DNA from: a virus
Virus genome (UHGV): UHGV-1421865
Strand: one strand, 5' to 3'
DNA length: 64,000 nt
Part shown: one piece after another, positions 30,520 to 61,630 of the stretch
Layout of the letters: every line of letters starts with the position of its first letter
How positions within the stretch are numbered: the stretch's first letter is position 1
Made by a program: the position numbers and the translations under genes
The notes under the pieces: model-generated
Seen by the model: the letters and a program-made list of their open reading frames with translations, nothing else
The model's database searches: none
Told to the model about the DNA's origin: nothing

Positions 30520-30556
30520 ATATGTAATATAGCGTACTTTGTGAGCAAAATCAATA
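30520..30556 (-). promoter_or_regulatory. Sigma70-like promoter (TTGATT-N17-TATATT) with the conserved TCACAAAGTA spacer
   Basis: On the minus strand: TTGATTttgctcacaaagtacgcTATATT. Confidence 0.55.
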
Positions 30557-30571
30557 CAACCACATAGAAAG

Positions 30572-30835
30572 TTAGTCCTTGAAGAGCATTAGTTTGTCGG
30601 ACAATACTTCCGTCTTGTATTTTATATCACTGTGTTCGATGACAGTAGCCGCGTCTATACTACAAGTTTCTAAGTCAGTAGCCTGCTCCTCTGTTATAGG
30701 TACAGTAGTGTATTCCGGTTGCTCACTGTCTGTACGCTGACACAAATACAGCCGGTTGTCTTTCGAAGACCGACAATAGAACTCTATCGGTTCGTCGTAG
30801 AAACATAAAATCTTAATCTTACCTAACTGCTCCAT
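30572..30835 (-). CDS. Hypothetical protein
   Basis: 87-aa ORF. Confidence 0.45.
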   Translation of the reverse strand: MEQLGKIKILCFYDEPIEFYCRSSKDNRLYLCQRTDSEQPEYTTVPITEEQATDLETCSIDAATVIEHSDIKYKTEVLSDKLMLFKD

Positions 30836-30854
30836 CTTTATCTTGTTTTATATA

Positions 30855-30888
30855 CTTTATATAGTACATGATGTATACAAAATCAGTG
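30855..30888 (-). promoter_or_regulatory. Sigma70-like promoter cTGATT-N17-TATATAAA; its spacer is not the conserved one
   Basis: On the minus strand: cTGATTttgtatacatcatgtacTATATAAA, upstream of the gene at 30572..30835. Confidence 0.4.
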
Positions 30889-30984
30889 CAATTTTGACGG
30901 TTTCTGTTTCGCATACTGGTATGTATAAACGTAGAATCGTAATAAAGCCACCATATTCGTCCTCTGTCGCGTCCGAATGGTCTA

Positions 30985-31040
30985 GCCTTGGTACTACTAA
31001 GCCTCAACAAAAATCGTGCGATAGAGGAGAGATTTTCTCA
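30985..31040 (-). repeat. Conserved element, copy 4: a partial half-element in minus orientation
   Basis: ggtactactaagcctcaacaaaaatcgtgcgatagag is the reverse complement of the gcacgatttttgttgaggcttagtagtacc half found in copies 3 and 5. Confidence 0.6.
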
Positions 31041-31058
31041 AGTTTTTTAATGTTAACA

Positions 31059-31097
31059 AAAAGAACACTTGTACGGTTAGCTGTACAAGTGTTCTTT
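31059..31097. terminator. Hairpin terminator after the 1110-aa gene
   Basis: Perfect inverted repeat aagaacacttgtac / gtacaagtgttctt immediately after the gene's stop codon. Confidence 0.65.
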
Positions 31098-31103
31098 ATA
31101 GTA

Positions 31104-34100
31104 TCAAAGTTTATAGCGTTTATTGACAGTTATTGATATAATATAGTGTTCTAGTTCTTTTAAGAGCGCCGGACGAATATCGAAAGCCAGTGTCTTGCTG
31201 TAGCTCTCTTCTAAACCGTTGTCCTTAAACATATAGTCCATTACGAGAGGTATAGTAATGTCCTTGTTGGAATCTATCGTGCTATATTGGTATTTATCGT
31301 ATTTGTTACATTGAAGCGACTCGACATCTTTCAATTCAAGATAAAGTACCGCACCGAACATCTTAGATTGGAATTCAGTACCCGGTCTACTGTTCTTCGC
31401 CGGATTCTTGATCTTATCCGAAGACGTGACCGGAATATCCACATAACGATAAATATCGGATATTGTATTATATACAAATGTATCTAAAAAGTCCCCGTCG
31501 TCGTACGTTAGGTTGTCTAAGTTATTTATCACATCGACGTTTTCCGAAGCTGTATTGTTTTTATCTAATACATTGTCGTTTTTAAGTACCAATTTATCGT
31601 CTTCTTTCACTAACGACAGTACTTTATTAGTCGCTACATTTATAATACCGTCACTGACATAACTTAAGATGCTGTTTTTATCGCCTATTCTGTACCGATA
31701 CGGCAACGACAGCTGTTGTTTGCTTTCAAGTATCCTATCTTGTGTGGCAATATCGTACCTTAGTCTATCTTTCTTCTCCAACGTCATATTTTTGCGATAC
31801 ACAGCCAAGTCTTTCATTCGTTGCTGCGGACTGTCGTAATAATAAGATTGATGGGTGTACGGATCCGTTGTTCTAAAATAGATAAATTGTCCCAACGTTT
31901 GTGCACGTGCTGTTTTAGTATCGTCTTTTATATGAAACGGTGTTCTTTCGTAGTCGCCTATCTTGTATTCGTAATAGTCTGCGTTTGTACACAGTAACGG
32001 TATCTTCACGTCGCCCGGAAATATACTATACAAATTCAAGTTTGTATCGTTCTCGTTTTTTATAACAAGATTAAATCGTTTTTGTGCATACCCCGATGTC
32101 AGTTCTTCGTGGTCGAACGAGATATAAGCCCGGTTATTACGATGTAGTTCTACTTTCTTGTCGTCGTATTCCAGGTACACCTTCAGATTAGAATGTAGCT
32201 CCGATTCGATAAGAGCTTTGTACTGTTGTAGTTCAGAATTCAGATCTGTTAGTTTATCCTTTAACGACAACATTTTACTGTCCTTGTCCATAAATCCGGA
32301 ATAGATGTTCTCCGGTGTATGATAGAACTTACGGTCTTTGGCTAAAATCTTATCGTCGACATGTTCTTGATAACCTTCGTTCAGTAGGTGCCGTATAAAG
32401 GCGGACTCTATTAAATCGGCGTTATTTTGTGTAACAATGTTGTATATACTGGTAACGTCGGCGTATTCGTGAGGGAACTGAATGACGAATTCTTCGCTCC
32501 ACGGTGTATATAAATCGATAAACGGTTGTCCGATAGAGTATTTGTATCTGAAACGAATCGTAACGTCTTCACCGACGACGATAGGAATATCCAGTTGGTT
32601 CCATCGTACACCGACGTCTTGCCCTTCTTTGAAGACTGGTTTGTATGCCCCGGTGACACTGTCGAAGACAATAGAACGTTCTCTTTCTATATTATACTGT
32701 TTATTCCATACCGACAACGATGTCTCGCCTCGCGTATTGATACCGGTAATAGCTGTGTTGTTAGAACTTGTATTCGAATACTTGTATTCTATATCTAAAG
32801 CGATAACATTGATTTCTTCGTTGTAGGTATCTTTTAACGCCAGTTCTAATGTATCGTACGCAGTAACACCACGGACAGCGAATTTAGGACTTTCAAAACC
32901 GTAAACGTCGTCTTTTATGTTATTGATATTGTCTATAATAGAAATATACTGTTTCTGGAGCGCGATTCGGTCTGTGTATTTCTTGTCGATTTCCTTCTTT
33001 AGCTCCGTCGCATTTGTAGCACCTTTCAGTATTTTGGTCTGTGTATCGTCGATACTACTTTGCAACGCCGTTAATGACGCGTTGATGTTCTGTTTTTGTT
33101 TATGTAAGTTAATAACGTCTTTAGAACTGTTGTCGTCGATAAGGTGCTTGTTTATCTGCACAACTTGTACATTATCTCGAACAAAGGTAGCACTAACAAT
33201 ACTTTTTATGGTATCAGAAGTTACTATCTCACTGATAATGAAGTTGTTAAAGTTACGAATAGACGGGTAGGCTACTTCTGTTAGTCCTAATATAATATCG
33301 CCGATGTTACGACAGTATTTTTTATAGTACTGAATGTAGTTCATACGAACATCGTTGTCGTACACATACTGGTTGTTTCTATCCTTTACAAAGACCTTTT
33401 CGAGGTCGACCAGGAACGGTTTACTGAACTCGCCGCGGACGTTATTGACAACCGAGCCGATAAAGACACAAATGTACCTGTTTTCTTCCAGTGGGATGTC
33501 GACGTATCTAAATTCCGAAAAGCTTTCGTTATATAAGACAAAATACATATCCTTGTCCTCGTTAATAGGTTGAAGGACTGTGTGGCCGATTTCCTCTTCT
33601 ACCTCTATATAGAACTTTTTATCGTCGCGATTACTGTTTTCTAATTTAGTTATCTTATATATAACATTACGGCCCGGAATAGTCAGCTTATCGCCGATGC
33701 GAAGGTACTGCTCTATGGCGTTATCTTCTGTTCCGGTGTACTTAAAGGTATTTATTCTGATACGATAGGTGTTATTTAGTCCGTCGATATGAGTGTTGTC
33801 GAGACGGGTTACGTCCAAGATCTCGAATCGACTGTCGTACTTGTTGTATTTTGTCGGCGCGGTGATGTGTGCGTCGTATTCGTCGTAATCGCGACCTGGA
33901 ACATAGTTGAACAGCGCTTGTTTGTATTCTTTGTACGACTGTAGATTGTTCCCCGACAGCAACGTAAAGAGTTCCTGACTGTATATTACAATCTTTTTAT
34001 ATACATATTCGTTTATCGTATCAGGAATGTTCTGAACATTCAGTCGAAGGTACATATACGGCGATACAAGGTCTTTGAGGAAATTGTTATCGCGGATGTG

Positions 34101-34436
34101 GACATGTCCAGAGTCGACATATTCGGGTTTGTTCGGTGCCGAGTTCCCTACCGACAGTTCTATTTTGTGCATATTGTCGGCATGTGTCAACCACGCGGAA
34201 CCCGTCTTGTTTAGATTTACCAGCGACTCGATAGAACTACTCAGTTCCTCTACCTTATTGTCTAAATAAAGTAACGATGGAATACGATATTCTGTATCGT
34301 CTTCTAATTTAATAGAAATTTCAGGCGATCTCGACAGTAGACTTTGGTTGATACTAGTGAGCATATTCACCGCGTCGTTGTACATCGACTGCAGTTTTAT
34401 GTAGTATTCTTTTAGAGATGAATTTTCTGTGACCAT
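31104..34436 (-). CDS. Large tail or baseplate protein of 1110 aa with coiled segments
   Basis: Long ORF with coiled-coil-like stretches; lies directly downstream of the 400-aa fibre-like gene. Confidence 0.55.
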   Translation of the reverse strand: MVTENSSLKEYYIKLQSMYNDAVNMLTSINQSLLSRSPEISIKLEDDTEYRIPSLLYLDNKVEELSSSIESLVNLNKTGSAWLTHADNMHKIELSVGNSAPNKPEYVDSGHVHIRDNNFLKDLVSPYMYLRLNVQNIPDTINEYVYKKIVIYSQELFTLLSGNNLQSYKEYKQALFNYVPGRDYDEYDAHITAPTKYNKYDSRFEILDVTRLDNTHIDGLNNTYRIRINTFKYTGTEDNAIEQYLRIGDKLTIPGRNVIYKITKLENSNRDDKKFYIEVEEEIGHTVLQPINEDKDMYFVLYNESFSEFRYVDIPLEENRYICVFIGSVVNNVRGEFSKPFLVDLEKVFVKDRNNQYVYDNDVRMNYIQYYKKYCRNIGDIILGLTEVAYPSIRNFNNFIISEIVTSDTIKSIVSATFVRDNVQVVQINKHLIDDNSSKDVINLHKQKQNINASLTALQSSIDDTQTKILKGATNATELKKEIDKKYTDRIALQKQYISIIDNINNIKDDVYGFESPKFAVRGVTAYDTLELALKDTYNEEINVIALDIEYKYSNTSSNNTAITGINTRGETSLSVWNKQYNIERERSIVFDSVTGAYKPVFKEGQDVGVRWNQLDIPIVVGEDVTIRFRYKYSIGQPFIDLYTPWSEEFVIQFPHEYADVTSIYNIVTQNNADLIESAFIRHLLNEGYQEHVDDKILAKDRKFYHTPENIYSGFMDKDSKMLSLKDKLTDLNSELQQYKALIESELHSNLKVYLEYDDKKVELHRNNRAYISFDHEELTSGYAQKRFNLVIKNENDTNLNLYSIFPGDVKIPLLCTNADYYEYKIGDYERTPFHIKDDTKTARAQTLGQFIYFRTTDPYTHQSYYYDSPQQRMKDLAVYRKNMTLEKKDRLRYDIATQDRILESKQQLSLPYRYRIGDKNSILSYVSDGIINVATNKVLSLVKEDDKLVLKNDNVLDKNNTASENVDVINNLDNLTYDDGDFLDTFVYNTISDIYRYVDIPVTSSDKIKNPAKNSRPGTEFQSKMFGAVLYLELKDVESLQCNKYDKYQYSTIDSNKDITIPLVMDYMFKDNGLEESYSKTLAFDIRPALLKELEHYIISITVNKRYKL

Positions 34437-34440
34437 AATG

Positions 34441-35643
34441 TTAGTTTATCGTTGTTGATGTTGTATCGAGATTCCAGCGTAAGGTATCTAAGATAGTTCT
34501 AAATTCGTCTAATTGCTTCTGGTTGTTCTGTTGTAGTTCTTTGAAGTTGGCCATCAACGTCTTTTGGACATTGTCTAACACAGTCTGTGACGACGACTGT
34601 GCCGTTATATTGTCTATTCTTGTATTTACGTCCATCAACTGACTCGATAAGGTATCTACTTTATTAGACAGAGCTGCAATCTGCGACAGTACCTGTGCGA
34701 AGGTGGCGAACGAATTGGTGATTTCTGAATTCCGTGCCTCCGAGGGCATTTGTTTAGAATATGGGAAGGGCTTGAACTGTGAGGCTATCGAAAGCGACCA
34801 TGTCGGTGCGAAGCCAGATACCTTGTCTCTTTTAAGGACAATATCGTCACCGAACCAGATACCGTACGGCACATTGATAGTACCCGTCGCTGGTAGTTGT
34901 TCACTGTCCTTAGAAAGTTCGCTTAGCGAGATATTATTCGTGACATAATTTGTATCGACCAAGTCGAACAGTGGTATAATACAGTTGAATACAAGCTCGT
35001 CTTTGACGGTACTGTTGTCTGTTACTTTAACATATTTGTTGGCTAATGTAGAATAGTAGTTTTTACCGTCTTGTGTAGTGTCAAATTCTGTTTCCAATGT
35101 AGACCATTCTGTGTTCGACAGCTCCTGTTCTGTCCAGCCGTACAGTCTTGTTTTGTTATCGGTTACTTCGATGAAACTTGTATTGTCTTGGGTTGTATCA
35201 GTAGGTTTGACTGTCCCACCAAGTTCAGTACTAACAATACTGTCTAAATTAACAATACAAATGGTGTCGGTATAGGTACCGTTATAGTCTTGTTCTGTTA
35301 TTTCGTTTATAGCACGTACTTCAAATCCGTCTATACTATCGTTGATAATACAGTCCAATAGATAGTTTAACGGTAGTAGCACATCGTTTGCCTTCGACCT
35401 ACTCTGACCGTCGAAATGGTCACGTAAGAATGCCAGTTTAGACTCGTAGTGTTTTATTAAGCTTTCTATTATAATAGGTTTATTCGTTTCAATGTTGGGA
35501 ATATAACAACAAAGGAATCTGGAGGGGTATAGTTTGGTATATGTCGACAAGAAATGACCCGTTAGTGCTTCGGTGTAATTACTAAACGTCAAAAACTTAC
35601 TGTCCGGACCGTCTTTATAAAATAAATTAGTTCTTCTTTTCAT
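34441..35643 (-). CDS. Putative tail fibre protein
   Basis: C-terminal heptad-like coil LSQIAALSNKVDTLSSQLMDVNTRIDNITAQSS...; the upstream region is dense with palindromic sites. Confidence 0.5.
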   Translation of the reverse strand: MKRRTNLFYKDGPDSKFLTFSNYTEALTGHFLSTYTKLYPSRFLCCYIPNIETNKPIIIESLIKHYESKLAFLRDHFDGQSRSKANDVLLPLNYLLDCIINDSIDGFEVRAINEITEQDYNGTYTDTICIVNLDSIVSTELGGTVKPTDTTQDNTSFIEVTDNKTRLYGWTEQELSNTEWSTLETEFDTTQDGKNYYSTLANKYVKVTDNSTVKDELVFNCIIPLFDLVDTNYVTNNISLSELSKDSEQLPATGTINVPYGIWFGDDIVLKRDKVSGFAPTWSLSIASQFKPFPYSKQMPSEARNSEITNSFATFAQVLSQIAALSNKVDTLSSQLMDVNTRIDNITAQSSSQTVLDNVQKTLMANFKELQQNNQKQLDEFRTILDTLRWNLDTTSTTIN

Positions 35644-35669
35644 GTGTTCTCTTTATAGTGATACAATTA

Positions 35670-35777
35670 AAAATCTCTATCAGAGATTTTATATTTGAAC
35701 TTTGTTCAAATCAAAAATCTGCGTCGCAGATTTCATATTTCAATTTATTGAAATCAAAAATCTATATCATCTGTTTT
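35670..35777. promoter_or_regulatory. Three spaced operator-like palindromes around an AAAATCT / AGATTTT dyad
   Basis: Sites read aaaatctct-atc-agagatttt (35670-35690), aaaatctgcg-t-cgcagattt (35714-35733) and the degenerate aaaaatctatatcatctgtttt (35756-35777), at about 44-bp spacing, interleaved with tgaac-ttt-gttca and ttcaat-tta-ttgaaa dyads. Confidence 0.5.
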
Positions 35778-35808
35778 GTACCATCTTCTTATAACTTATA
35801 AAACGCCC

Positions 35809-35960
35809 AAAAATTTGCTCTCTACCACACGATTTTTGTTGAGGCTTAGTAGTACCAAGGTAAGTGTATTTGAGTGCGTCAGAGAGCCTAAAAAGTGCCT
35901 TTATGGACGTGTTATGATTCTACTGTAGCCTACCCAGAACAGAAACCGTCAAAAAATCAA
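35809..35960 (+). repeat. Conserved element, copy 5 (plus orientation, between minus genes); a hairpin follows
   Basis: Nearly identical to copy 3 over about 100 nt. Tail is cagaacagaaaccgtcaaaaaatc followed by cagacg...cgtctg. Confidence 0.8.
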
Positions 35961-41408: not shown

Positions 41409-41449
41409 TTCACTTGTGATACTTATATTCTGAGGACTTTATTGTTATA

Positions 41450-41487
41450 TATATATTATATAGTCTACTTTGTGAACAAAATCAGCA
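41450..41487 (-). promoter_or_regulatory. Sigma70-like promoter with the conserved spacer (cTGATT-N17-TATATAAT)
   Basis: On the minus strand: cTGATTttgttcacaaagtagacTATATAAT, upstream of the paralog array. Confidence 0.55.
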
Positions 41488-41585
41488 TGTAAAACATACA
41501 AAATCAGTGTACTTGTGCACAAAAATCAATGTACCAAATTAGAATAGAGTGATTTTCAAATAAGACGTATATAAAGAACACCGAC

Positions 41586-41867
41586 ATGTCTATCACCGAG
41601 ACTAATACACACACCAGTACGAGCGCCATACAGTGGCCCGGTTATGTCTTTATATATAAGAACGAAAACAATCGCATTGTAATATATTTCTATAAAGGTC
41701 TGGAATACAATGAGTTAGACTTGTCTGAAATAGACGTACCGTATGAAATAGAATATATAAGTGACGGTGCTGTCAAACTATCGTTTTTAACTGATATTTC
41801 TTATATAAAATGTAAGTTAGTAAAAACAGACGGGTCATACGAGTATATCCGATATAAATCAAACTAA
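41586..41867 (+). CDS. Hypothetical protein
   Basis: 93-aa ORF. Confidence 0.45.
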   Translation: MSITETNTHTSTSAIQWPGYVFIYKNENNRIVIYFYKGLEYNELDLSEIDVPYEIEYISDGAVKLSFLTDISYIKCKLVKTDGSYEYIRYKSN

Positions 41868-42189: not shown

Positions 42190-42642
42190 ATGAACAAAAG
42201 AAGATACAAAGAGTACAGTGTTGTTATAAATACGAATCCAAATAATTCCGTACTAAATTACGAGTACGATCCGGAGAAGAACATTCATATAACAAACATC
42301 GGTTCGGGTACATTCTATAAAACTTACTATAAAAAAGAACTAGTCAACACCGGTACAGCCAATACTGGTACAGTCAACACCAATACGAACAACACTACAG
42401 TCTACCCGACGTCACTAACCGACGTTTTTAATAAGTACAAAACCGAACTAGAAAATGACAAGTTAAATGCCTATCGACTGTACAACAACGTCGATGAGGA
42501 GGCTATATTAAAGGTAATAAAGAACGGTAACGGACATATTTATCTTAAAAGAATGCCCTCCGGTCACTACTACGACGACACTGTTATCGACCGTCTCGAA
42601 CTATTACTGACAAATACCGAAAATGATGTCAAAAATAAGTGA
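42190..42642 (+). CDS. Hypothetical protein
   Basis: 150-aa ORF. Confidence 0.45.
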   Translation: MNKRRYKEYSVVINTNPNNSVLNYEYDPEKNIHITNIGSGTFYKTYYKKELVNTGTANTGTVNTNTNNTTVYPTSLTDVFNKYKTELENDKLNAYRLYNNVDEEAILKVIKNGNGHIYLKRMPSGHYYDDTVIDRLELLLTNTENDVKNK

Positions 42643-42647
42643 TTTAT

Positions 42648-42690
42648 TTGTTGTTTCGATCTATTATATAAATAGATTTATTTGTAACTA
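42648..42690 (+). terminator. Possible hairpin terminator
   Basis: atctattatataaatagat inverted repeat after the stop codon. Confidence 0.35.
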
Positions 42691-42707: not shown

Positions 42708-44606
42708 ATGGGAAAAATTCATATCACAGACTGGTCACGCGACGTGTGTGGAGAATACCAGGCAAAAGAAAAGGAACGTCATGAACGCGAAGACGAACAG
42801 TATCATTTTGCTGCAAAGCATTACGAGGAAGAGAACCCCAACCATATTTCCGACGAGGAGTTTTTGAAAATGATTCCTTATAAGATAGTACATCTCACTA
42901 ATAACAAGTTGTACTATGCCGTTTCGTTTGCCGCTATCCTTCAAAATATGCAAGGACAGGTGAATCCGTTTGATACTTTCTTTTTGCTTATCGACAATAC
43001 ATGGGACGCAAACAAACGATTCGGTTTCTTCCCGTTCTTTAAGCGACTCGCAAAGGCCAAGGACTTCAATGAAGTATCGACGATTCTCCGAAATAAACTC
43101 GACTACATCAAAAATTATGAATTCGGTTTTTATGTAGCTCCGATGGAACGTCACCTCGAAGTTATCTATATGGATAAAGACTCGTTTAAGATGCCGAACC
43201 TCACCGGTGATACCCCCCAGTACGAAGACGGTGTTGATTATAAGAAGATTTTACCTAAAATGGTTACACCGCGCGGTGACAAATTTACGAACAAGACGAT
43301 TGAAGAACAGATTAAGTTAGGTGTAGTACCGGAACTCTCCACCGATTTCGTCGGACGAACTATTCCCGCTATTTCTGAAGAAGCAGAACGACTAATCGCA
43401 GAACGTAACGCTCGCCGTGCTACAGATGTGCCTCATACTGTTTCTGACAGTGCTGTTGATACTACTAATGATACAGCCGGTGATACACTCAATGATACAG
43501 TACATGATACTACTAAAGATGCTGATTTACAAGCCGTTAACTCAACCAATAATGTAAGCGGTGATACAGTAGATGATACAGTCATTGATACAACGACTGA
43601 TATGTCGACGACGACGGCCACTATTAAAGACACTAATATAGTTAACAATACAGGCCGTACAAGTTCAGTACCAGATACCGATGTAGGACATGTCGATAAC
43701 ACAGTTGTAGACAGTAATAGAGACGATACAAGCGCAAAACAAGTACCGAAACTAGTATTGCCGGGTATTAAAATGGAAAGTTTGTATATCGACGATCAAT
43801 TTACATTGAATCAAAAGTATAAATTGCTAAATATCACGTTAAGTAATGCTATATTAGAAGCTCGTAAAAACGGACTGGTATTTTCCAAACAAGACTTGTT
43901 GAACCTTAATAAGACGTTTAATAAAACAATACTAGATAATATCTTGGACGACCCGGAAGAAGGGCCACCCAAGACACCGAAGACGGACTTTTATCGGTCT
44001 ATAATGTCTTATTATAAGAACAACAAAACAGACTGTGTCGTACTGGGTCTACAACAACTGGAGACTTTTAAGAATGCCAAGGCACCCCCTACAGATAGAT
44101 CAAAGTTCGACAACAGTATGCCGAAACGTGCCGGGTGTGTGACAATGGTACAACCCACACCGATGCAACCAAGCCCGACAGTGCAAGTTTCGTGTACGGA
44201 GCAGTACAAAAAAGACATGGATGAGGCTTACAAGAAAATGTTAGGTGACTGTGAATTTTATTGTATGTTTATAAATCCTGTGTTGAACAGTATGCTGCAA
44301 CAACTTTTAGGGGACTATATAAAAGCTGTATCACAAAATCCAGAATTTGCAGATCCCAATTCGTCCAGTGGTATACAAAAGTGTGCATCTAATTATACGA
44401 ACAATGTAAATAGATGTCCTGACATTTGTAAGTCACAGTTTATGACGGGTGCCGTACAATATCAAGTACAGTTCAATGCAATCAGTACAGTAACTGCAAT
44501 GTCAGAACTATTAAAGCGTATTGCTAGTGGTGAAAGCCCGATGGACATGTGTAATTCATTTATGATTACCGGTACGCAGTTCGCAGACTTTTTGTTACAG
44601 CACTAA
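42708..44606 (+). CDS. Hypothetical protein of 632 aa with a Thr/Asp-rich low-complexity repeat region
   Basis: Degenerate repeats DTxxDT (VDTTNDTAGDTLNDTVHDTTKD...) in the middle, and a Cys-rich C-terminus. Confidence 0.5.
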   Translation: MGKIHITDWSRDVCGEYQAKEKERHEREDEQYHFAAKHYEEENPNHISDEEFLKMIPYKIVHLTNNKLYYAVSFAAILQNMQGQVNPFDTFFLLIDNTWDANKRFGFFPFFKRLAKAKDFNEVSTILRNKLDYIKNYEFGFYVAPMERHLEVIYMDKDSFKMPNLTGDTPQYEDGVDYKKILPKMVTPRGDKFTNKTIEEQIKLGVVPELSTDFVGRTIPAISEEAERLIAERNARRATDVPHTVSDSAVDTTNDTAGDTLNDTVHDTTKDADLQAVNSTNNVSGDTVDDTVIDTTTDMSTTTATIKDTNIVNNTGRTSSVPDTDVGHVDNTVVDSNRDDTSAKQVPKLVLPGIKMESLYIDDQFTLNQKYKLLNITLSNAILEARKNGLVFSKQDLLNLNKTFNKTILDNILDDPEEGPPKTPKTDFYRSIMSYYKNNKTDCVVLGLQQLETFKNAKAPPTDRSKFDNSMPKRAGCVTMVQPTPMQPSPTVQVSCTEQYKKDMDEAYKKMLGDCEFYCMFINPVLNSMLQQLLGDYIKAVSQNPEFADPNSSSGIQKCASNYTNNVNRCPDICKSQFMTGAVQYQVQFNAISTVTAMSELLKRIASGESPMDMCNSFMITGTQFADFLLQH

Positions 44607-51250: not shown

Positions 51251-51400
51251 CAAAAATTTGCTCTGTATCGCATTATTTTTCTTAGCCTTGGTGTAACTAA
51301 GGTCACTACATTTGAGTGCGTCAGAGGGCCTTAAAAGTGCCTTTATGAAGACGTAGGGTATTTACATACCAGTATGCAAAACAGAAACAACACAAAAACT
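51251..51400 (+). repeat. Conserved element, copy 6, between convergent terminators
   Basis: tttgctctgtatcgcattatttttcttagccttggtgtaactaaggtcactacatttgagtgcgtcagagggccttaaaagtgcctttatg...cagtatgcaaaacagaaacaacac. Confidence 0.8.
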
Positions 51401-54914: not shown

Positions 54915-55070
54915 AGAAAATCTGCCCTCTAACGCACGATTTTTCTTTGACCTTGGTACTACTAAGGTCGCTACATTTGAGTGCGCCAGAGAGCCTAAAA
55001 AGTGCCTTTACGTGGACGTCAGATATTTACACATCAGTATGCAAAACAGAAACGTCAAAATAACCAACCC
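54915..55070 (+). repeat. Conserved element, copy 7; the strong terminator at 55082 follows
   Basis: ctgccctctaacgcacgatttttctttgaccttggtactactaaggtcgctacatttgagtgcgccagagagcctaaaaagtgcctttacgtggacgtc...cagtatgcaaaacagaaacgtcaaaataacc. Confidence 0.85.
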
Positions 55071-55159: not shown

Positions 55160-55320
55160 TAAAAACTTGCCCTCTAACGCACGATTTTTCTTTGACCTTG
55201 GTGTTGGTAAGGTCAACTAATTTGAGTGCGTCAGAGGGGCTAAAAAGTGCCTTTACGGACGTGTGATGATTCTGTACGTCGGTGTACAAAACAGAAACCA
55301 CCCAATCAGCCCCAATATAT
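55160..55320 (+). repeat. Conserved element, copy 8, in tandem with copy 7; a hairpin follows
   Basis: cttgccctctaacgcacgatttttctttgaccttggtgttggtaaggtcaactaatttgagtgcgtcagaggggctaaaaagtgcctttacggacgtg...gtacaaaacagaaaccacccaatc. Confidence 0.85.
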
Positions 55321-55604: not shown

Positions 55605-55703
55605 TGGTATCTACAAGAATTGAACTTGTGACACACGGATTTTCAGTCCCACGCTCTGGTCAACTGCGTTGACTTACTTTGTCACCAACTGAGCTACATC
55701 ACC
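55605..55703 (-). pseudogene. Degenerate tRNA-Phe(GAA)-like locus with a 26-nt hairpin inserted in the D-loop
   Basis: Has GTAGCTCAGTTGGT...AGAGC, a CTGAAAA anticodon loop and a T arm ACAAG-ttcaatt-CTTGT. The acceptor strands and the anticodon stem do not pair. Confidence 0.35.
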
Positions 55704-56114: not shown

Positions 56115-56195
56115 ATAGTCCCAGGCCAGGATTCGAACCTGAATTTCGTCTCCAATGAGACGTGTATTAGCCTTTATACTAACTGAGTAATATAG
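56115..56195 (-). pseudogene. tRNA-like remnant: a T arm is present, but there is no foldable anticodon arm or 5' acceptor
   Basis: caggTTCGAATcctg T arm; the central segment forms a cgtctc-attg-gagacg mini-hairpin instead of an anticodon arm. Confidence 0.3.
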
Positions 56196-56270: not shown

Positions 56271-56280
56271 ATATTTTGAT

Positions 56281-56580
56281 TTAGTTTTCCATTTTTGGTT
56301 TATAAGATACTGTCTTAATTTCTTCACCTTCAAAAGCATAGCAATTAACATCACAATCAGAAGCCAGCATGTATTCACTGTATACATTAGATAAACCTTC
56401 AATACCCAAAATACCGTCTTCTAATTGAAAGTAAGAAGTGCTGGTTTCGTACCATCTATGACGGTTTATATCAATGTTACTTGCTAATTGTGTTTCGTAG
56501 TCAATTACACTTTCTGCATCGTCTATATAATAGAGTTCTTCAGAATTATTTATTCGTTCTATTGCTTCTTTTAGTTTCAT
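56281..56580 (-). CDS. Hypothetical protein
   Basis: 99-aa ORF. Confidence 0.4.
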   Translation of the reverse strand: MKLKEAIERINNSEELYYIDDAESVIDYETQLASNIDINRHRWYETSTSYFQLEDGILGIEGLSNVYSEYMLASDCDVNCYAFEGEEIKTVSYKPKMEN

Positions 56581-56586
56581 AATTAA

Positions 56587-56770
56587 ATTGAATTAAAAAC
56601 AAATGTCGTCATGCCAATTGCTTAACATATCACTACGGAATTCTTTCGCATCATCTAAATACTCAGACAAAAACGAAGACACTTCCTTAAAGTTGCTTAT
56701 GTCACCATTAAAGGGTACGTTAAGTACATCTTGACAAAATCTAACGGCAGCTTTTTGTCTTTCTGTTGTC
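56587..56770 (-). CDS. Small hypothetical protein of about 60 aa
   Basis: Hand translation gives MTTERQKAAVRFCQDVLNVPFNGDISNFKEVSSFLSEYLDDAKEFRSDMLSNWHDDICF. Confidence 0.3.
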
Positions 56771-56773
56771 ATA

Positions 56774-56846
56774 AGTTCGCTCGCTGGAACTCGAATCCAG
56801 GACTCCTTGATTAAAAGTCAAGTGCTCTACCAACTGAGCTACGAGC
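56774..56846 (-). tRNA. tRNA-Lys(TTT)
   Basis: Acceptor TCGCTCG/CGAGCGA, D arm GCTC-agttggtag-AGC, anticodon arm CTTGA-cttttaa-TCAAG, T arm CTGGA-ttcgagt-TCCAG. Confidence 0.8.
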
Positions 56847-56867
56847 GATTCTATAAACTATACAAGT

Positions 56868-56941
56868 TGCGGACAATGCAGGATTCGAACCTGCGACCTA
56901 CTGATTAACAGTCAGCCGCTCTAACCATCTGAGCTAAATGT
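56868..56941 (-). tRNA. tRNA-Asn(GTT)
   Basis: Anticodon loop ctgttaa, D arm GCTC-agatggtta-GAGC, T arm GCAGG-ttcgaat-CCTGC, discriminator G. Confidence 0.75.
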
Positions 56942-56955
56942 CCATACTCTATTAT

Positions 56956-57027
56956 AGAGCTTCCTGTCAGAGTCGAACTGACAACCTCTTCATTACAAGT
57001 GAAGCGCACTGCCATTGTGCTAAGGAA
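56956..57027 (-). tRNA. tRNA-Thr(TGT)
   Basis: Acceptor GCTTCCT/AGGAAGC, anticodon arm CTTCA-cttgtaa-TGAAG, T arm GTCAG-ttcgact-CTGAC. Confidence 0.8.
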
Positions 57028-57147
57028 GCGAATGCTTCCAGTATATCACGTTAGTGACATTAAGGAAGCGAATGCTTCCAGTATATCACGTTAGTGACAT
57101 TAAGGAAGCGAATGCTTCCAGTATATCACGTTAGTGACATTAAGGAA
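57021..57147. repeat. 40-bp tandem direct repeat, 3.2 copies, starting inside the 5' end of tRNA-Thr
   Basis: Unit aggaagcgaatgcttccagtatatcacgttagtgacatta, three times and perfect. Each unit holds the palindrome ggaagc-gaat-gcttcc and a TATACT (-10-like) on the tRNA strand. Confidence 0.85.
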
Positions 57148-57215
57148 GCAGGTGTAGTCTAAATTAGACTTTGATTGTGGTGTAAAATCACGCTAATTAA
57201 ACTACATTCATTGAG

Positions 57216-57290
57216 GGTGTCCTATGGGATTCGAACCCATGACCTTCAGAACCACAATCTGACGTTCTAACCGTCTGAACTAAGGACAAC
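57216..57290 (-). tRNA. tRNA-His(GTG) with an encoded G-1
   Basis: Anticodon arm TCAGA-ttgtggt-TCTGA, D arm GTTC-agacggtta-GAAC, T arm ATGGG-ttcgaat-CCCAT. The extra 5' G pairs with discriminator C73, a His-specific feature. Confidence 0.7.
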
Positions 57291-57388
57291 ATGATGGTGG
57301 AAAAACGACTGCGCCCCACCTACGCAAGGTCTTCAAAGACCACCGACCGTGTTTTATAGTTAACTATAAAAGTAATCAGGTACTGTCG

Positions 57389-57488
57389 TGGACCAGGTAG
57401 GACTTGAACCTACGACTCTGGAAAACAAACTAGAGAAAGGAGGTTAAACTAGTGTGAATTCGGCTCTGGCCATCTGAGCTACTGGTCC
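57389..57488 (-). pseudogene. Interrupted or intron-like tRNA gene: acceptor, D and T arms are canonical, but the anticodon and variable region is 49 nt
   Basis: GGACCAG-TA-GCTC-agatggcca-GAGC and GTAGG-ttcaagt-CCTAC-CTGGTCC-A. No 17-nt anticodon arm can be folded. The insert carries an actag/ctagt stem and, on the opposite strand, AAGGAGGT followed by GTG then TGA. Confidence 0.45.
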
Positions 57489-57582
57489 GGTTGACGGTCA
57501 AACGCTCCACACCGTCGGGTGGATGTCTGTACTAAACAGACAACAAACAGTATGCTTGAATCAGAGGCCGTTGTGCTTATTG

Positions 57583-57657
57583 ACAGTGTTATAGGATTCG
57601 AAACTACATCTCTTGATTCAAAACATCAAGGCTCTACCAATCTTTGAGCTAGACACC
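57583..57657 (-). pseudogene. tRNA-like locus with a Lys-type anticodon arm; the acceptor does not pair
   Basis: D arm GCTC-aaagattggta-GAGC and anticodon arm CTTGAT-gttttga-ATCAAG are fine; the T stem and acceptor are aberrant. Confidence 0.3.
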
Positions 57658-57864
57658 GCGCATGTAGTTTTTCTATGCCCACATAAACTACAAAAATGTT
57701 CTGTTTGCTATGTATTCTTTGAACACGTAGTGTTCATACGTTGAACAGCTGTCTGTTTGAGGTTAATTCTGTGCACAGAAACATAGCCTTAACATGGGTC
57801 TTTACAATATGATTTGCAACGCAATACGATTCGTACTAAGCACGACACCAGTATTGTTCTATTT

Positions 57865-57898
57865 ATAATAATAGCGAACTTTGTGAGGTAAATCAGCG
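57865..57898 (-). promoter_or_regulatory. Sigma70-like promoter with the conserved spacer, upstream of the tRNA block
   Basis: On the minus strand: cTGATTtacctcacaaagttcgcTATTAT. Confidence 0.5.
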
Positions 57899-57923
57899 TA
57901 ATTTACAAGAAAAATCAGTAAAG

Positions 57924-58271
57924 TCAATCATTAAATTCATAATTTAGTACCTTACGGACTTTTTTATAAGTGCTAATTACTATCTGGTCGTTATAGACCC
58001 AATAGGTTTCCTCTTCATTGTGAGGGGGGATTCCACTGTTTATTTTCTTTAGATAAAAGAGAATGAATATCAGCAGCGTAACGAAACAAAGGTAGTGTAC
58101 GTTACCGATAAGCAACAACAGTATATGCCACAGTTTAACTCGGAAATTCCTATTAGGGTACCTGTGTACATTAAAACCTCGGTGGTCTACATCGAAATCG
58201 TAGTACTGTGTATTGAACAACACACGTAGTTCTATTAGAAACAGAACAATACCTGGTACATACCACATCAT
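57924..58271 (-). CDS. Membrane protein with two or three TM helices
   Basis: Hydrophobic N-terminus MMWYVPGIVLFLIELRVLF and LLLIGNVHYLCFVTLLIFILFYL. Confidence 0.45.
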   Translation of the reverse strand: MMWYVPGIVLFLIELRVLFNTQYYDFDVDHRGFNVHRYPNRNFRVKLWHILLLLIGNVHYLCFVTLLIFILFYLKKINSGIPPHNEEETYWVYNDQIVISTYKKVRKVLNYEFND

Positions 58272-58302
58272 ATTTTAAGAACTTAATTAAACTTCAACGT
58301 AT

Positions 58303-58500
58303 TTAGTCATAGCCTTTATAGACTCTTTTGAACTTGTGAACGTCACAGTCTTCAAAGACGACTCTGTTTCTGTGTCTGATGTACCGATTCAATTGATTCT
58401 TCAACCATTTTCTTTCACCGGCCTTGATGTACTTTCTTTTCTTGTGGTCTTTATTGTAAGGCAATAAAGTTGAACACAGTTGTAGTCTACGTAATGCCAT
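58303..58500 (-). CDS. Small basic protein of 65 aa
   Basis: Lys/Arg-rich: KRKYIKAGERKWLKNQLNRYIRHRNR. Confidence 0.35.
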   Translation of the reverse strand: MALRRLQLCSTLLPYNKDHKKRKYIKAGERKWLKNQLNRYIRHRNRVVFEDCDVHKFKRVYKGYD

Positions 58501-58505
58501 ATCTA

Positions 58506-58862
58506 CTAATATAATCCAGCATGTCGCTTAATAGGTTCATAATACAACTCGTCTACTCGTTCGTTGCTGTACTTATCGTTTATTGCGACAACCAGCTTAC
58601 CATCTTTTTCTGAAACAACATACTCAGCAATGGTCCGACCGAACACATAAAGTACGATGTGTAGGTTTTTATAGTTCGAATGATCGAACATCACTTCAAT
58701 TTCATCGAGCAGGGCACATTCATTATGATACAGATACGGCAATGTTTCTACGAAATCGATGATGCTATCGGTATTGGTGAATTTTGAATATGCGCAAAAC
58801 ATAACAAACTCGTCTCTGTCACTATCGACAGGATAACCTGACTTCATTTCTGTGTACAACAT
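58506..58862 (-). CDS. Hypothetical protein
   Basis: 118-aa ORF with a conserved-spacer promoter immediately upstream. Confidence 0.5.
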   Translation of the reverse strand: MLYTEMKSGYPVDSDRDEFVMFCAYSKFTNTDSIIDFVETLPYLYHNECALLDEIEVMFDHSNYKNLHIVLYVFGRTIAEYVVSEKDGKLVVAINDKYSNERVDELYYEPIKRHAGLY

Positions 58863-58904
58863 ACTGTGTAATTTTTACTGGTCTTGTTTCTAACTTGATT
58901 TGTT

Positions 58905-58941
58905 ATATATTATATAGTCTACTTTATGAATAAAATCAACT
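58905..58941 (-). promoter_or_regulatory. Sigma70-like promoter with the conserved spacer
   Basis: On the minus strand: TTGATTttattcataaagtagacTATATAAT. Confidence 0.55.
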
Positions 58942-59111
58942 TATGTAGTACCAGAAGCGGGACTCATCGTACATGAAAATCTAAATCATTACATTTAGTT
59001 TTCACTTCTTGCTTCAATCTATCACTACTAATTGTAATCAATATCACAATCCCATAGGAGGATAGTCCACAAGCGTAAATTCGGTACTACGAATACCTAC
59101 TAGTTTTGTTC

Positions 59112-60251
59112 TTATACTGCACTTATCCTACGACCCTCGTAGAGGATATTTAGTGCTGCATTGTAATCTCTATCATGGTTTGTGCCACATTTAGGACAAC
59201 ACCAATAACGGTCTTGTAACTTCAAGTCATTGTGTACATAACCACATTGTGAACAAGTCTTTGAGCTGGGATAAAATCGATCAATAAGTACAACCTTCTT
59301 GTCGTTTTGTAAAGCCTTAGTTGATAGCACAGTCTTGAACTTAAAAAATCCAACTTCTTGGATTGCCTTGGCAAGTTTATGATTTTTCATCATCCCTTAT
59401 ACATTCAAGTCTTCCATGTAGACAGTATCATACTGTGACAATAACTCATTTACTACAGAATGTATATAGTTTTCCTTCTTATTCGTAATAGTCTCAAACA
59501 CTTTCGCTATCCTCTTACACTGTTTATAGAAGTTGTTTGAACCTTTACGTTTCCTCGACAACTGTCGTTGTAGCTTTACAAGTCGCTTTTCTTCTTTATT
59601 ATAGAAATGTTTGTTGTCAAATGTAGTGTCATCTGATGTTATAACAAAATCCTTAACACCTAGATCGATACCGACATCACGACCTGTTTTATTGAACTTA
59701 GTAAGTTCGTTATCATTCATATCAATAAGAATAGATAAGAAGAAATTCCCACTCTTGGTTTTCGATAAGGTTGCACTTCTTATATTGTTCTTATATCTAC
59801 GCAATCTTGCCAAGTACAAATCAGAACATCTAAATGATATGTCTTTTAATTTGGTTGTAAGTGTTATCTTACGTGTCACAAATGTATTTTTCTTGGATAT
59901 TGTACCTTTCGGGAACAACGCAGATTGGTTATTCTTCTTCGACTTGAACTTTGGAAACCCATTATGTTGTTTGAAGAATTTTTGGTAGCCACTATCCATT
60001 TGTCTAATAGCTTGATTCATTATCTTTGTATTCTGTTCCTTCAACCAAGCATATTGTTCATCTTTCAATAACTCATGATGAAAATGTTTGGATAGTTGAG
60101 TTGTTCCAAGATTTGTTTTATCTGTGTTATACGCTTCTTGTTTACGAGCAAGCATGTAGTTATAAACAAAACGATAACACCCAAGCACACTATTTAGTAC
60201 CTGTTCTTGTGTTTTATTTGGATATAACCTTATTTTGATTGCTCGTAACAT
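59112..60251 (-). pseudogene. tnpB: IS200/IS605-family tnpB (OMEGA / RNA-guided nuclease), interrupted by an in-frame TAA
   Basis: N-terminus MLRAIKIRLYPNKTQEQVLNSVLGCYRFVYN and GIDLGVKDF (RuvC-I) ...MEDLNV, then TAA, then in the same frame GMMKNHKLAKAIQEVGFFKF...CSQCG...CPKCG...HDRDYNAALNI (zinc finger plus RuvC-III). Hand translation confirms a single in-frame stop where a Lys codon is expected. Confidence 0.8.
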
Positions 60252-60293
60252 TGATTTCCTTATTTAACTACTTGATTGTTTACTGTTACTATT

Positions 60294-60382
60294 TGGTGCC
60301 CGAAGTGGGGGTCGAACCCACACGAACATTACTGTTCAAGAGATCCTAAATCTCTCATGTATACCAATTTCATCATTCGGGC
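60294..60382 (-). tRNA. tRNA-Leu(TAG), class II, CCA encoded
   Basis: Acceptor GCCCGAA/TTCGGGC, anticodon arm AGAGA-tttagga-TCTCT, variable-arm hairpin GAACA-gtaa-TGTTC, T arm GTGGG-ttcgacc-CCCAC, 3' ACCA. Confidence 0.8.
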
Positions 60383-60635
60383 AACTAAGTATGGTTATAA
60401 CGTTACCAACGCAGCTCACTAAGACTAATTCGCGACTTAGCAAATAATGATTACTCCGAGATTTGGAATGTATAATTACTCTATCTTCTACGGCTGTATG
60501 ATAGAAACCTAATTAGTTTAGGATACTCTGGGTCCCAATGTGCCCAAATTTTGCATACTCTTATCGTACGTTATATATGTTAATAGTATGCGAAAAACAT
60601 ATACACGCCAGTTTCTAGTGACTTGGGTACTGTTG

Positions 60636-60709
60636 TGGACCAGGTAGGGATTGAACCTACGACCTTCGCCTTATGAGGGCGCCGCTCTGTACCACTGAGC
60701 TACAAGTCC
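60636..60709 (-). tRNA. tRNA-Met/Ile(CAT), elongator type
   Basis: Anticodon loop ctcataa; the T arm and 3' acceptor are the same as in the interrupted tRNA at 57389. The acceptor has one mismatch. Confidence 0.55.
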
Positions 60710-60714
60710 TTATT

Positions 60715-60790
60715 CAAGACAGTATAGGATTCGAACCTATGACGTTGGTATAATCACCTTAAGCATTCGTCCACTCTGCCAAGCTGTCTT
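60715..60790 (-). pseudogene. tRNA-like locus: good T arm and acceptor, but the D and anticodon arms do not fold
   Basis: ATAGG-ttcgaat-CCTAT, acceptor AGACAGC/ACTGTCT; no canonical anticodon arm. Confidence 0.3.
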
Positions 60791-60809
60791 GTTATAAATG
60801 TGTATTAGT

Positions 60810-61193
60810 TTAGTAAGTAAAAGTAATACTATAGATATAATCGTCGTTATAGTTTTCAAGAATCTCTTGAAATACAGTTAAGACTTTCTTCACATCCTTA
60901 AAATAATTATTATTGTATTTTGACGGTACAAATAAGAAATGATCTGTTGTCGGTAACAATTCAGTACACATGCTGTGATCTTCTAATACAAGTGTACAAT
61001 CCTCAACTAAATACTCAATTTCTTCTTTTGTAATTGGTGTATTATGAATACAATTTTCTCCGTACGGATGTCCAGCGAAATACCTATAAAGAAAGTTAAT
61101 ATCAGTAAGAAGACTAATATCTTCATATTCAGAACCCATACCCGTACGGTGTTCTTCTTTAAGTCCTCTACCAATCTCAATTTTCAAACTCAT
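60810..61193 (-). CDS. Hypothetical protein
   Basis: 127-aa ORF immediately downstream of tRNA-Leu(TAA). Confidence 0.5.
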   Translation of the reverse strand: MSLKIEIGRGLKEEHRTGMGSEYEDISLLTDINFLYRYFAGHPYGENCIHNTPITKEEIEYLVEDCTLVLEDHSMCTELLPTTDHFLFVPSKYNNNYFKDVKKVLTVFQEILENYNDDYIYSITFTY

Positions 61194-61221
61194 AACCTAC
61201 TTGATTGTTTACTGTTACTAT

Positions 61222-61308
61222 TTGGTACCCGAAGTGGGGGTCGAACCCACATGGTCTACTGACCAAAAGATTTTAAATCTTTCATGTATACCGATTTCAT
61301 CATTCGGG
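61222..61308 (-). tRNA. tRNA-Leu(TAA), class II, CCA encoded
   Basis: A paralog of the tRNA at 60294 including about 30 bp of 3' flank. Anticodon arm AAAGA-tttaaaa-TCTTT. Confidence 0.75.
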
Positions 61309-61469
61309 CATTGTATATACTATAATCCGTCCCCAACCGCTATTATAGTATATGATTCATTACAAATTTATGGCTTCTGACTGGACGGTTTTGTAATTAC
61401 GCAGGAAATGTTCTTCATCTTAGGAAGACAAATCCCGAAACTGAATGTATTTATACATCAGCGAGTAGT

Positions 61470-61540
61470 ATTCAGGCTGGGACTTGAACCCAGATTGGAT
61501 GTGTATAAGACATCTAGCCTAACCTTTAACTGACCTGAAC
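61470..61540 (-). tRNA. tRNA-like, probably Ile(TAT); the D arm is poorly resolved
   Basis: Anticodon arm GATGT-cttatac-ACATC, T arm CTGGG-ttcaagt-CCCAG, acceptor TTCAGGT/GCCTGAA. Confidence 0.45.
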
Positions 61541-61594
61541 GTGCAACCTACTTTAGAGTAGGTCTTGATTGCGTTACATACTTGATGTGTTACA

Positions 61595-61630
61595 TATCTA
61601 AAATAGTACACTTTATGAGAAAAATCAATG
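61595..61630 (-). promoter_or_regulatory. Sigma70-like promoter with the conserved spacer
   Basis: On the minus strand: TTGATTtttctcataaagtgtacTATTTTAG. Confidence 0.5.

Follow-up and report, generated by a model that had tools for sequence, protein, structure and literature searches.

Gene content and host of the phage

The DNA considered here, a 64,000-nt stretch of the viral genome UHGV-1421865 that we call the window, lies on a 187-kb metagenomic contig (ENA ERZ772909 NODE_12) and carries a family of repeated promoter-like sequences, five of which had been singled out on the minus strand in an original prediction. Together with 10 kb on either side of the window, 84 kb of phage DNA from this contig of at least 187 kb were inspected. 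The window encodes a T4-type portal, a large terminase, gp2 and a split family-B DNA polymerase, as well as SHMT, Dam, NDK, DUF285 paralogs, a split TnpB and 14-16 tRNAs. The portal and a 1110-aa protein show 23-40% identity to proteins of uncultured megaphages, Sphingomonas phage PAU and Tenacibaculum phages; further matches are with Prevotella Lak phages for the portal and with Chryseobacterium MA9V phages for the 1110-aa protein.

Of 51 genes, just one has a Shine-Dalgarno-like motif, and the sequences around the starts are rich in A, few Shine-Dalgarno motifs and A-rich starts being a signature of Bacteroidota (PMC6847099). The phage SHMT is 62-65% identical to cellular enzymes, the named sources of which are all Bacteroidales (Alistipes and Rikenellaceae metagenome-assembled genomes, MAGs). 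Given the near absence of Shine-Dalgarno motifs and the Bacteroidales-like SHMT, the host is very probably a gut Bacteroidales bacterium, an assignment that is indirect. TnpB, also tried as a host indicator against reference genomes, was uninformative, its matches being 28-44% identical and spread over Firmicutes and Bacteroidales MAGs.

A family of candidate promoters

All five minus-strand sites lie where they had been placed, each with a spacer of 17 bp. The 18-nt pattern TGATT-N4-TCAYAAAGT (TGATTNNNNTCAYAAAGT) has five exact matches in the window, one in each site and all on the minus strand, against an expectation of 0.00; it was matched in none of the 100 dinucleotide shuffles from which this expectation was taken, and the spacer is non-random, as had been supposed. 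The core reads TCACAAAGT in sites 1-3 and TCATAAAGT in sites 4 and 5, and an invariant C stands before the TA-rich hexamer (CTATATTA, CTATATAA, CTATTATT, CTATATAA and CTATTTTA in sites 1 to 5). The two boxes are indeed common to the sites, but in sites 2 and 3 the upstream hexamer reads CTGATT, and what is conserved is the box TGATTT(T)(G). An independent repeat search also recovered the promoter family (repeat families D8 and D10).

Searched with the skeleton TGATTT-N15-CTAT, the window contains eight matches (seven minus, one plus) where 0.28 would be expected, all eight being intergenic and oriented toward the next gene. For alignment we used 23 distinct promoters from this phage and four relatives: L174 (88% identity in a 264-aa protein), L176 (95% in SHMT), L012 (about 90%) and L010 (79%), the last two both measured in the 1110-aa protein; the promoters are partly orthologous, so that counts among them are not independent. 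The arrangement of TTGATT or CTGATT, 17 bp and TATAWW is found in 8/8 window members and in 23/23 promoters across the relatives. A position weight matrix (PWM) for the family was built from these 23 promoters, with the shuffle maximum of 20.2 as threshold; exactly the eight members exceed it and no other site comes close. TGATTTT is 11 times as dense in intergenic as in coding DNA. Generic sigma70 scans, by contrast, were not enriched (66 vs. 63.6 expected and 31 vs. 34.2 expected), which indicates that the specific consensus matters and not resemblance to TTGACA/TATAAT. The members within the window, together with the open reading frames (ORFs) and other genes downstream of them, are as follows.

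30517..30555, minus strand: candidate promoter A1 (site 1), TTGATT-ttgcTCACAAAGTAcgc-TATATT; TGATTT 30548-30553, core TCACAAAGT 30536-30544, CTAT and -10-like TATATT 30526-30532; PWM score 47.2; downstream, small ORFs 30247-30483, 30020-30211 and onward (minus strand)
30849..30887, minus strand: candidate promoter A7 (sixth site), two-box skeleton with degenerate spacer TGTATACATCATGTA; PWM score 35.7; downstream, ORF 30572-30835 (minus strand)
41448..41486, minus strand: candidate promoter A2 (site 2), CTGATT-ttgtTCACAAAGTAgac-TATATA; TGATTT 41479-41484, core TCACAAAGT 41467-41475, CTATATAA 41456-41463; PWM score 46.1; downstream, 186/195/197-aa paralogs (41% and 26% identity), SHMT, Fer4_12 protein and Dam (minus strand)
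41486-41507 and 41508-41529, minus strand: two extra 22-bp units upstream of A2, CTGATTTTGTATGTTTTACATG and TTGATTTTTGTGCACAAGTACA, respectively, neither with a CTAT box of its own
42638..42676, plus strand: candidate promoter A10, two-box skeleton TGATTT-ATTTGTTGTTTCGAT-CTATTATA; PWM score 22.9
57859..57897, minus strand: candidate promoter A3 (site 3), CTGATT-taccTCACAAAGTTcgc-TATTAT; TGATTT 57890-57895, core TCACAAAGT 57878-57886, CTATTATT 57867-57874; PWM score 26.1; downstream, tRNA block from 57658 down to 55523 (minus strand)
57897..57918, minus strand: distal 22-bp unit upstream of A3, CTGATTTTTCTTGTAAATTACG, matching the spacer consensus at 10/14
58902..58940, minus strand: candidate promoter A4 (site 4), TTGATT-ttatTCATAAAGTAgac-TATATA; TGATTT 58933-58938, core TCATAAAGT 58921-58929, CTATATAA 58910-58917; PWM score 39.3; downstream, ORFs 58506-58862, 58303-58500 and 57924-58271 (minus strand)
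61591..61629, minus strand: candidate promoter A5 (site 5), TTGATT-tttcTCATAAAGTGtac-TATTTT; TGATTT 61622-61627, core TCATAAAGT 61610-61618, CTATTTTA 61599-61606; PWM score 40.4; downstream, tRNA-Ile, tRNA-Leu, ORF 60810-61193, tRNA-Met, tRNA-Leu and TnpB (minus strand)
61673..61711, minus strand: candidate promoter A8 (seventh minus-strand member), skeleton with degenerate spacer TGCTACTAATATAGA (10/14); PWM score 20.8; 82 bp upstream of A5 and directly past the stop codon of the 264-aa gene

An additional full copy was found about 7 kb past the right end of the window (L005:2881-2917). The units served comprise tRNA blocks, small ORFs, a paralog array and genes for replication and nucleotide metabolism, and the placement originally proposed for the five sites, upstream of small ORFs, the paralog array and tRNA blocks, holds for a family whose members are all intergenic and co-oriented with the genes that follow. 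The sixth site, A7, does have the hexamers, as had been noted, but it was wrongly described as lacking the spacer, since it matches the degenerate spacer consensus at 9/14. Likewise, the statement that there is no plus-strand copy is true for the exact spacer core only: the skeleton member A10 is on the plus strand, where it precedes a 632-aa gene (42708-44606) and is 95% conserved in L176, flanks included.

Consensus and modular structure

With the T of TATAWW set as -12, the consensus covers about 38 bp and reads R-yTGATTTTG-yTCAyAAAGT-rnr-CTATAWWA-n-ATATA. R-yTGATTTTG occupies -36 to -27, within which the upstream box, TGATTTTG, lies at about -34 to -27; yTCAyAAAGT follows at -26 to -17, then r-n-r and the C at -13. 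Downstream, TATAWW takes up -12 to -7 and is followed by A, an unspecified base and ATATA (-4 to +1), the conserved ATATA block sitting where the start of transcription would be expected. Past ATATA there is a loosely conserved leader, AACAA..CAAG, at a variable distance. Among positions outside the search pattern, R at -36 is present in 23/23 promoters; spacer positions 9, 10 and 13 are Y, W and Y in 23/23, and position 18 is Y in 22/23.

The similarity is sharply bounded. The six core-bearing promoters of the phage share 10.7/15 spacer bases, against about 13.5/40 in the 40-base flanks, which is the level of unrelated AT-rich DNA, and similarity ends within about 45 bp. Folding of the sites was not significant (z-scores -0.5 to +1.1), and no terminator-like sites adjoining family members were found in the 55-64 kb scanned.

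The part of the consensus from yTGATTT to the base before CTAT forms a module of 22 bp, which also occurs in tandem and in exact register: three units at site 2 (41464-41529) and two at site 3 (57875-57918), recovered as repeat family D20. Only the last unit of each tandem array precedes CTATAWWA.

Orthologous promoters in related phages

L174 holds seven exact skeleton sites at syntenic positions, and both boxes are kept at the site 2 orthologue in L010, L012 and L176. More generally, all four relatives carry the skeleton at syntenic locations, and both boxes are retained in every orthologous promoter pair, with the exact core often changed. Site 2 reads GTTCACAAAGTAGA in this phage, GTTCACAAGCTGCA in L010, ATTTTGTGCAGTATA in L012 and GTACTCTGATTGTG in L176; the L174 orthologues of sites 5 and 3 read GCTTGTAAAACGAA and GTACACAAACTGGA, respectively, and at the polymerase promoter the core is absent in this phage and present in L174. 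At site 4, the 40 downstream bases (40/40) and both boxes are identical to those of the L174 orthologue, yet the spacers, that of L174 being TGTATGTAAAACATG, agree at just 7/15 positions. L174 has an extra upstream unit here, whose spacer matches that of site 4 at 11/15, and the two loci would thus differ by a single 22-bp unit that was gained or lost. L174 also has an inserted extra promoter with a 67-aa gene, and its promoter L174:14361 consists of the 5' flank of A8 joined to the 3' flank of A5, so that by its sequence it is a recombinant of two promoters.

The original prediction took the conserved spacer to point to a second recognition element. That the exact core is lost at orthologous promoters of relatives while both boxes persist speaks against a second site, for example an operator, that is independent and obligatory. 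Nor is the core commoner than chance outside the promoter register: the 9-mer alone occurs seven times in the window, and the two extra occurrences, both coding, compare with 1.85 expected by chance window-wide. Members without the exact core nevertheless match the spacer consensus at 8.8/14 on average, against 4.8 for shuffled spacers, a value reached in 0 of 20,000 shuffles. The spacer signal is graded over the whole family, with a degenerate version in every member. Much of the residual pattern is made up of transitions from the core, and common descent explains part of it; the copies within one genome would be alike because the 22-bp module is duplicated, deleted and recombined between loci. 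The simplest reading is that the spacer represents a preferred promoter part homogenized by recombination rather than an obligatory second site. An obligatory, separately bound element is not supported, though the core might conceivably provide a modulatory contact or mark a labile sub-regulon.

The phage collection and IMG/VR yielded no close relative. Scanning IMG/VR with the DNA pattern gave four single chance matches, none related, and a search of IMG/VR for related loci with the 1110-aa protein found nothing. The scan of metagenome contigs with the DNA pattern returned at least 116 single-match loci, and neither blastn nor tblastx linked any of those listed to the window. The motif is confined to the close clade, as it is lacking in relatives at about 40% identity.

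Recognition of the candidate promoters

The primary sigma factor of Bacteroidota recognizes TTTG at -33 and TAnnTTTG at -7, 19-21 bp apart; T-12, A-11, T-8, T-7, T-6 and G-5 are nearly invariant in promoters of this phylum, and E. coli-type promoters are not expressed in it (PMC6847099). Among the 23 aligned promoters, the family has T-12 and A-11 (A-11 in 23/23, partly forced by the search pattern), but A predominates at -6, and -5 shows no preference. In 15/23 promoters the upstream box TGATTTTG includes TTTG, at 14 bp from the downstream TA and not at 19-21. TAnnTTTG occurs 54 times in the window, against 65 expected, and no occurrence is in register or fronts these units. We also tried a Bacteroidota -7/-33 reading of the sites on either strand and rejected it, the would-be TTTG of the plus strand being lost in sites 4 and 5. 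Judged by its bases, the family matches neither the -7 nor the -33 element of Bacteroidota. The check suggested with the original prediction, transcription by host sigma70 holoenzyme, presupposes a host of E. coli type. With TAnnTTTG out of register and a host of Bacteroidota type, to which the single Shine-Dalgarno motif in 51 genes, the Bacteroidales-like SHMT and the relatives among phages of Bacteroidota all point, the assumption of an E. coli-type host sigma70 lacks sequence support.

We favor, with moderate confidence, the interpretation that these sequences form a phage-specific promoter class for early or middle functions, the likeliest reader of which would be a phage-encoded sigma70-family factor acting on the host core RNA polymerase. 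The functional unit would be the extended consensus of about 38 bp, driving tRNA blocks, small ORFs, paralog arrays, and genes for nucleotide metabolism and replication. Two boxes 17 bp apart would suit the geometry of a multisubunit RNA polymerase with a sigma70-family factor that has regions 2 and 4, and a phage sigma factor on the host core could give the phage a promoter code unused by the host. The near-identical spacers of five or six copies would be the consensus form of a family-wide preference, not a separate operator, and duplication, deletion and recombination of the 22-bp module between loci would keep the copies alike in one genome. It is the need of the host primary sigma for TTTG/TAnnTTTG, which the family lacks in register, that makes a phage sigma factor the likeliest reader.

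The inventory of related phages is consistent with this. No phage RNA polymerase was recognized, there being no DFDxD motif in the large ORFs and no polymerase families among the Pfam or PHROGs matches. Iyer et al. 2021 count Lak and PTm1 among the group 2 jumbo phages, which have no RNA polymerase of their own but do have sigma factors and gp33 (PMC7824862). A fragment of B. subtilis SigA covering regions 2-4 matched all 15 Lak genomes by tblastn. The match in Lak-B8 is a 329-aa sigma70-family protein, which also matches LR756500.1. Judged by the portal, LR756500.1 is the public genome most closely related to the window; like all 15 Lak genomes, it encodes sigma70-family proteins covering regions 2-4. 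With sigma70-family genes present in related megaphages, it is reasonable to suppose that a phage sigma factor would read a promoter of two boxes spaced 17 bp apart.

Several observations weigh against a phage sigma factor as reader. No sigma gene was found in the 84 kb of this phage, and no host-type promoter, which would be needed to express a phage sigma factor first, was found in the inspected DNA. Position -7 is T in 14/23 promoters and A in 8/23, a poor fit to the -10 element of classical sigma70 promoters. Relatives at about 40% protein identity (L178 and L179) have no TGATTT-N15-CTAT in very AT-rich intergenic DNA. Finally, LR756500.1 carries a promoter family of its own, ACTTTA-N7-ATTTTT-N13-TGTTATTAWWTTTA, with 14 copies in 50 kb against 0.14 expected (L181, LR756500.1 412001-462000; from 23428 to 48970, all on the plus strand and intergenic), the last block of which, TAWWTTTA, resembles the Bacteroidota -7 box. 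LR756500.1 thus has sigma genes and yet a Bacteroidota-like -7, so that knowing of a sigma gene in the lineage is not enough to predict classical boxes.

The strongest alternative, unlikely in our view, is that these are early promoters read by the host primary holoenzyme right after infection, like T4 early promoters. Early-type genes follow the sites (tRNAs, small ORFs, nucleotide metabolism), T4 early promoters likewise have "additional regions of consensus" (PMC2988021), and upstream of these units no other promoter type was found. The invariant T-12 and A-11 and the TTTG within the upstream box also fit, but recognition by the host would have to tolerate the mostly A -6 and unconstrained -5 at positions that are nearly invariant in Bacteroidota (PMC6847099), the short distance of TTTG from TA and the lack of TAnnTTTG enrichment. 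The host assignment on which part of this comparison depends is itself indirect.

Less probable still is that a phage regulator binds the core TCAYAAAGT, perhaps with TGATTT as part of its site. It would be either a repressor silencing a sub-regulon or an activator that appropriates sigma as T4 MotA/AsiA does, and the core promoters would constitute a class under separate control. The core is nearly invariant in six promoters and degenerate in four other members, the blocks lie about one helical turn apart with the 22-bp repeat units on the same helix face, and there is a likeness between the upstream box and the MotA box in its GATT variant (PMC2988021). By direct reading, an inverted repeat TTTRy-N2-ryAAA is also present in 4/6 core copies, site 4 showing one compensatory change, but it fails at sites 3 and 5 and in relatives. 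The loss or replacement of the core at orthologous promoters of close relatives, where the promoter stays, and its chance-level frequency out of register speak against a regulator site, as does the distance to the -10 element, which is 15-16 bp here and 12 +/- 1 bp for the MotA box (PMC2988021). Neither the MotA nor the AsiA family was among the Pfam matches of the 84 kb. Two further readings of the core were discarded: a palindromic operator (TTTGT-N2-ACAAA or ATTTTG-N4-CAAAGT), found in 4/6 core copies and failing in sites 3 and 5, L174 and L010, and a Crp/Fnr-like site (TTGAT-N4-nTCAn), which would be centered near -28.5, no activator position.

That the sequences are not promoters at all, being instead recombination or mobile-element sequences (TnpB/IS605 ends, homing sites, packaging repeats) or an AT-rich transcribed RNA motif, is very improbable: a split TnpB gene does lie 170 bp upstream of site 4 and promoter copies do mark indel and chimera boundaries between relatives, but TnpB is near only 1/8 copies and its relatives elsewhere are merely 28-44% identical, neither a hairpin nor significant folding is present, so that the subterminal hairpins of IS200/IS605 are missing, the similarity ends within about 45 bp, with flanks at about 13.5/40, and orientation with the downstream gene is strict (8/8).

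The preferred interpretation, a phage-specific class read by a phage sigma factor, predicts that the promoters are silent with host sigma A and active with the phage factor. It can be extended to a more speculative and rather doubtful proposal, an orthogonal early/middle promoter code in which the phage sigma70-family factor would read the -35, the -10 and a third element within the spacer, yTCAyAAAGT (-25 to -17), unusable by host sigma, the promoter evolving as a stackable 22-bp module. If this were true, sigma or an accessory subunit would make a genuine third contact in the spacer, and Bacteroides would have in this family an orthogonal expression system that is ready for use. Orthologous promoters with identical flanks and different spacers offer a natural experiment that separates the function of the boxes from that of the spacer. 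Almost nothing is known of the organization of transcription in T4-superfamily jumbo phages of Bacteroidota, for which the family gives a concrete, testable consensus, and strong promoters that are not read by host sigma would be useful for engineering gut Bacteroidales.

Other elements of the locus

A different promoter-like class, not belonging to the family, lies at 41549..41585 on the plus strand, directly before the ATG at 41586, and has the structure GATTTTCAAATA-N7-ATATAAAGAACACC. It is on the opposite side of the divergent region from A2, and both of its blocks are conserved in three relatives. The box TATAAAGA(A/G)CAC stands directly before start codons at 41570-41582 (plus strand) and at 35645-35657, 31088-31100 and 504-516 (minus strand). 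Within 41549-41585 its partner block is GATTTTCAAATA. The box recalls the T4 late box TATAAATA and is a candidate late promoter class.

An intergenic repeat family of about 150-200 nt has at least eight copies in the window, in both orientations (rc, reverse complement), and further copies beyond it:

6284-6437 (+), 22847-23005 (rc), 25275-25413 and 30942-31050 (rc): intergenic repeat copies
35809-35947, 51251-51389, 54916-55054 and 55161-55299: intergenic repeat copies
L005:2050-2314, L005:2675-2955 and L008:17409-17578: intergenic repeat copies beyond the window

The repeat has, in order, the conserved blocks CTCTAACGCACGATTTTT, ATTTGAGTGCGTCAGAGAGCCTAAAAAGTGCCTTTA and AAAACAGAAACCGTCAAAA, and contains an internal hairpin that is inverted between copies (CCTTGGTACTACTAAGG vs. 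CTTAGTAGTACCAAGG). RNAalifold gave a 16-pair stem with weak covariation, and there was no Rfam match. Two copies end exactly at family promoters (30885, at A7, and L005:2884), and a perfect Bacteroidota -7 box, TACATTTG, is present in two copies.

The coding sequence of the family-B DNA polymerase is divided between 27583-28815 (minus strand) and L005:7695-9215, two genes with about 45 kb between them, one containing the exonuclease and the N-terminal polymerase part and the other the C-terminal part. TnpB (IS605-type OrfB; 59112-60251, minus strand) is split into ORFs of 284 and 93 aa and lies 170 bp upstream of A4; in L174 it is intact (379 aa), and a second copy is present there. The DUF285 (BspA-like repeat) paralog array occupies 62685-63933 (minus strand) and L005:5215-11249, with DNA repeats of 290 nt at 63-74% identity (D1) and a copy number that differs from that of L174.

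Rfam finds 16 tRNA genes and ARAGORN 14. The extra ones, at 55605-55703 and 57389-57488 (minus strand), are about 100 nt long, a length that suggests an intron or a large insert, and the ARAGORN tRNA at 56118-56188 has an unreadable 2-base anticodon. A perfect 40-nt tandem repeat lies between tRNA genes at 57021-57149, as three overlapping 49-nt copies with 100% identity (D11). Two tRNA-Leu genes are each preceded by a 55-nt segment, 98% identical between them (60268-60322 and 61197-61251; D19), which contains the leader-like sequence AAATAGTAACAGTAAACAATCAAGTAG, also found ahead of two ORF starts.

Comparison with known systems

Of the options named in the original prediction, an extended early-promoter class analogous to that of T4 comes closest, although the family has neither TGn nor an UP element and its boxes are not of host type. 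Like the early promoters (Pe) of T4, a T4-superfamily myovirus here carries many near-identical copies before early and tRNA genes, and the two boxes about 17 bp apart with consensus beyond the hexamers are also shared with them (PMC2988021). T4 early promoters are read by E. coli sigma70; in the family, -16 to -14 is r-n-r in place of TGn, there is no conserved A/T-rich UP element (upstream identity 13.7/40), and the box is TGATTTTG rather than GTTTAC/TTGACA, which a Bacteroidota-type host sigma should not read (PMC6847099). In T4-like phages, repeated early promoters are also found as PeSL cassettes at indels and gene swaps in plastic regions (PMC4122927). The 22-bp unit indel at site 4, the inserted promoter with its 67-aa gene and the chimeric L174:14361 recall these cassettes, but PeSL combines a stem-loop terminator with a promoter, and the family sites have no stem-loop or terminator.

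The middle promoters of T4 (MotA/AsiA) are similar in that a phage-specific upstream box replaces the host -35 and middle-type genes, including tRNAs, lie downstream, and yTGATTTt of the family is similar to (a/t)(a/t)TGCTT(t/c)a, the MotA box, and to the GATT variant of that box (PMC2988021). They differ in spacing (12 +/- 1 bp, against 15-16 bp in the family) and in the -10, which in the family is not of host type, and neither a MotA nor an AsiA family was detected among the Pfam matches of the 84 kb. T4 late promoters (gp55/gp33) have a single -10 box, TATAAATA, without an upstream box, whereas the family has CTATAWWA with an upstream box at a fixed distance. In the upstream regions of Tenacibaculum phage PTm1 we noted another repeated motif, TTGTTTAATAC(T/A)ATAGAAAT, which is not comparable.

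Phage sigma cascades, such as that of Bacillus phage SPO1 with gp28, use phage-specific two-box promoters read by the host core with a phage sigma factor. The family resembles them as a two-box class in a lineage with sigma70-family genes, those of Lak and LR756500.1, although in the 84 kb of this phage none was found. With the promoter family of LR756500.1, the copies of which are all on a single strand, it shares a long, multi-block consensus (about 50 bp in LR756500.1) that is repeated and intergenic, but the sequences are unrelated and that family has a Bacteroidota-like -7 block. A repeated phage-specific promoter class is of a known kind and is to be expected in a large lytic phage.

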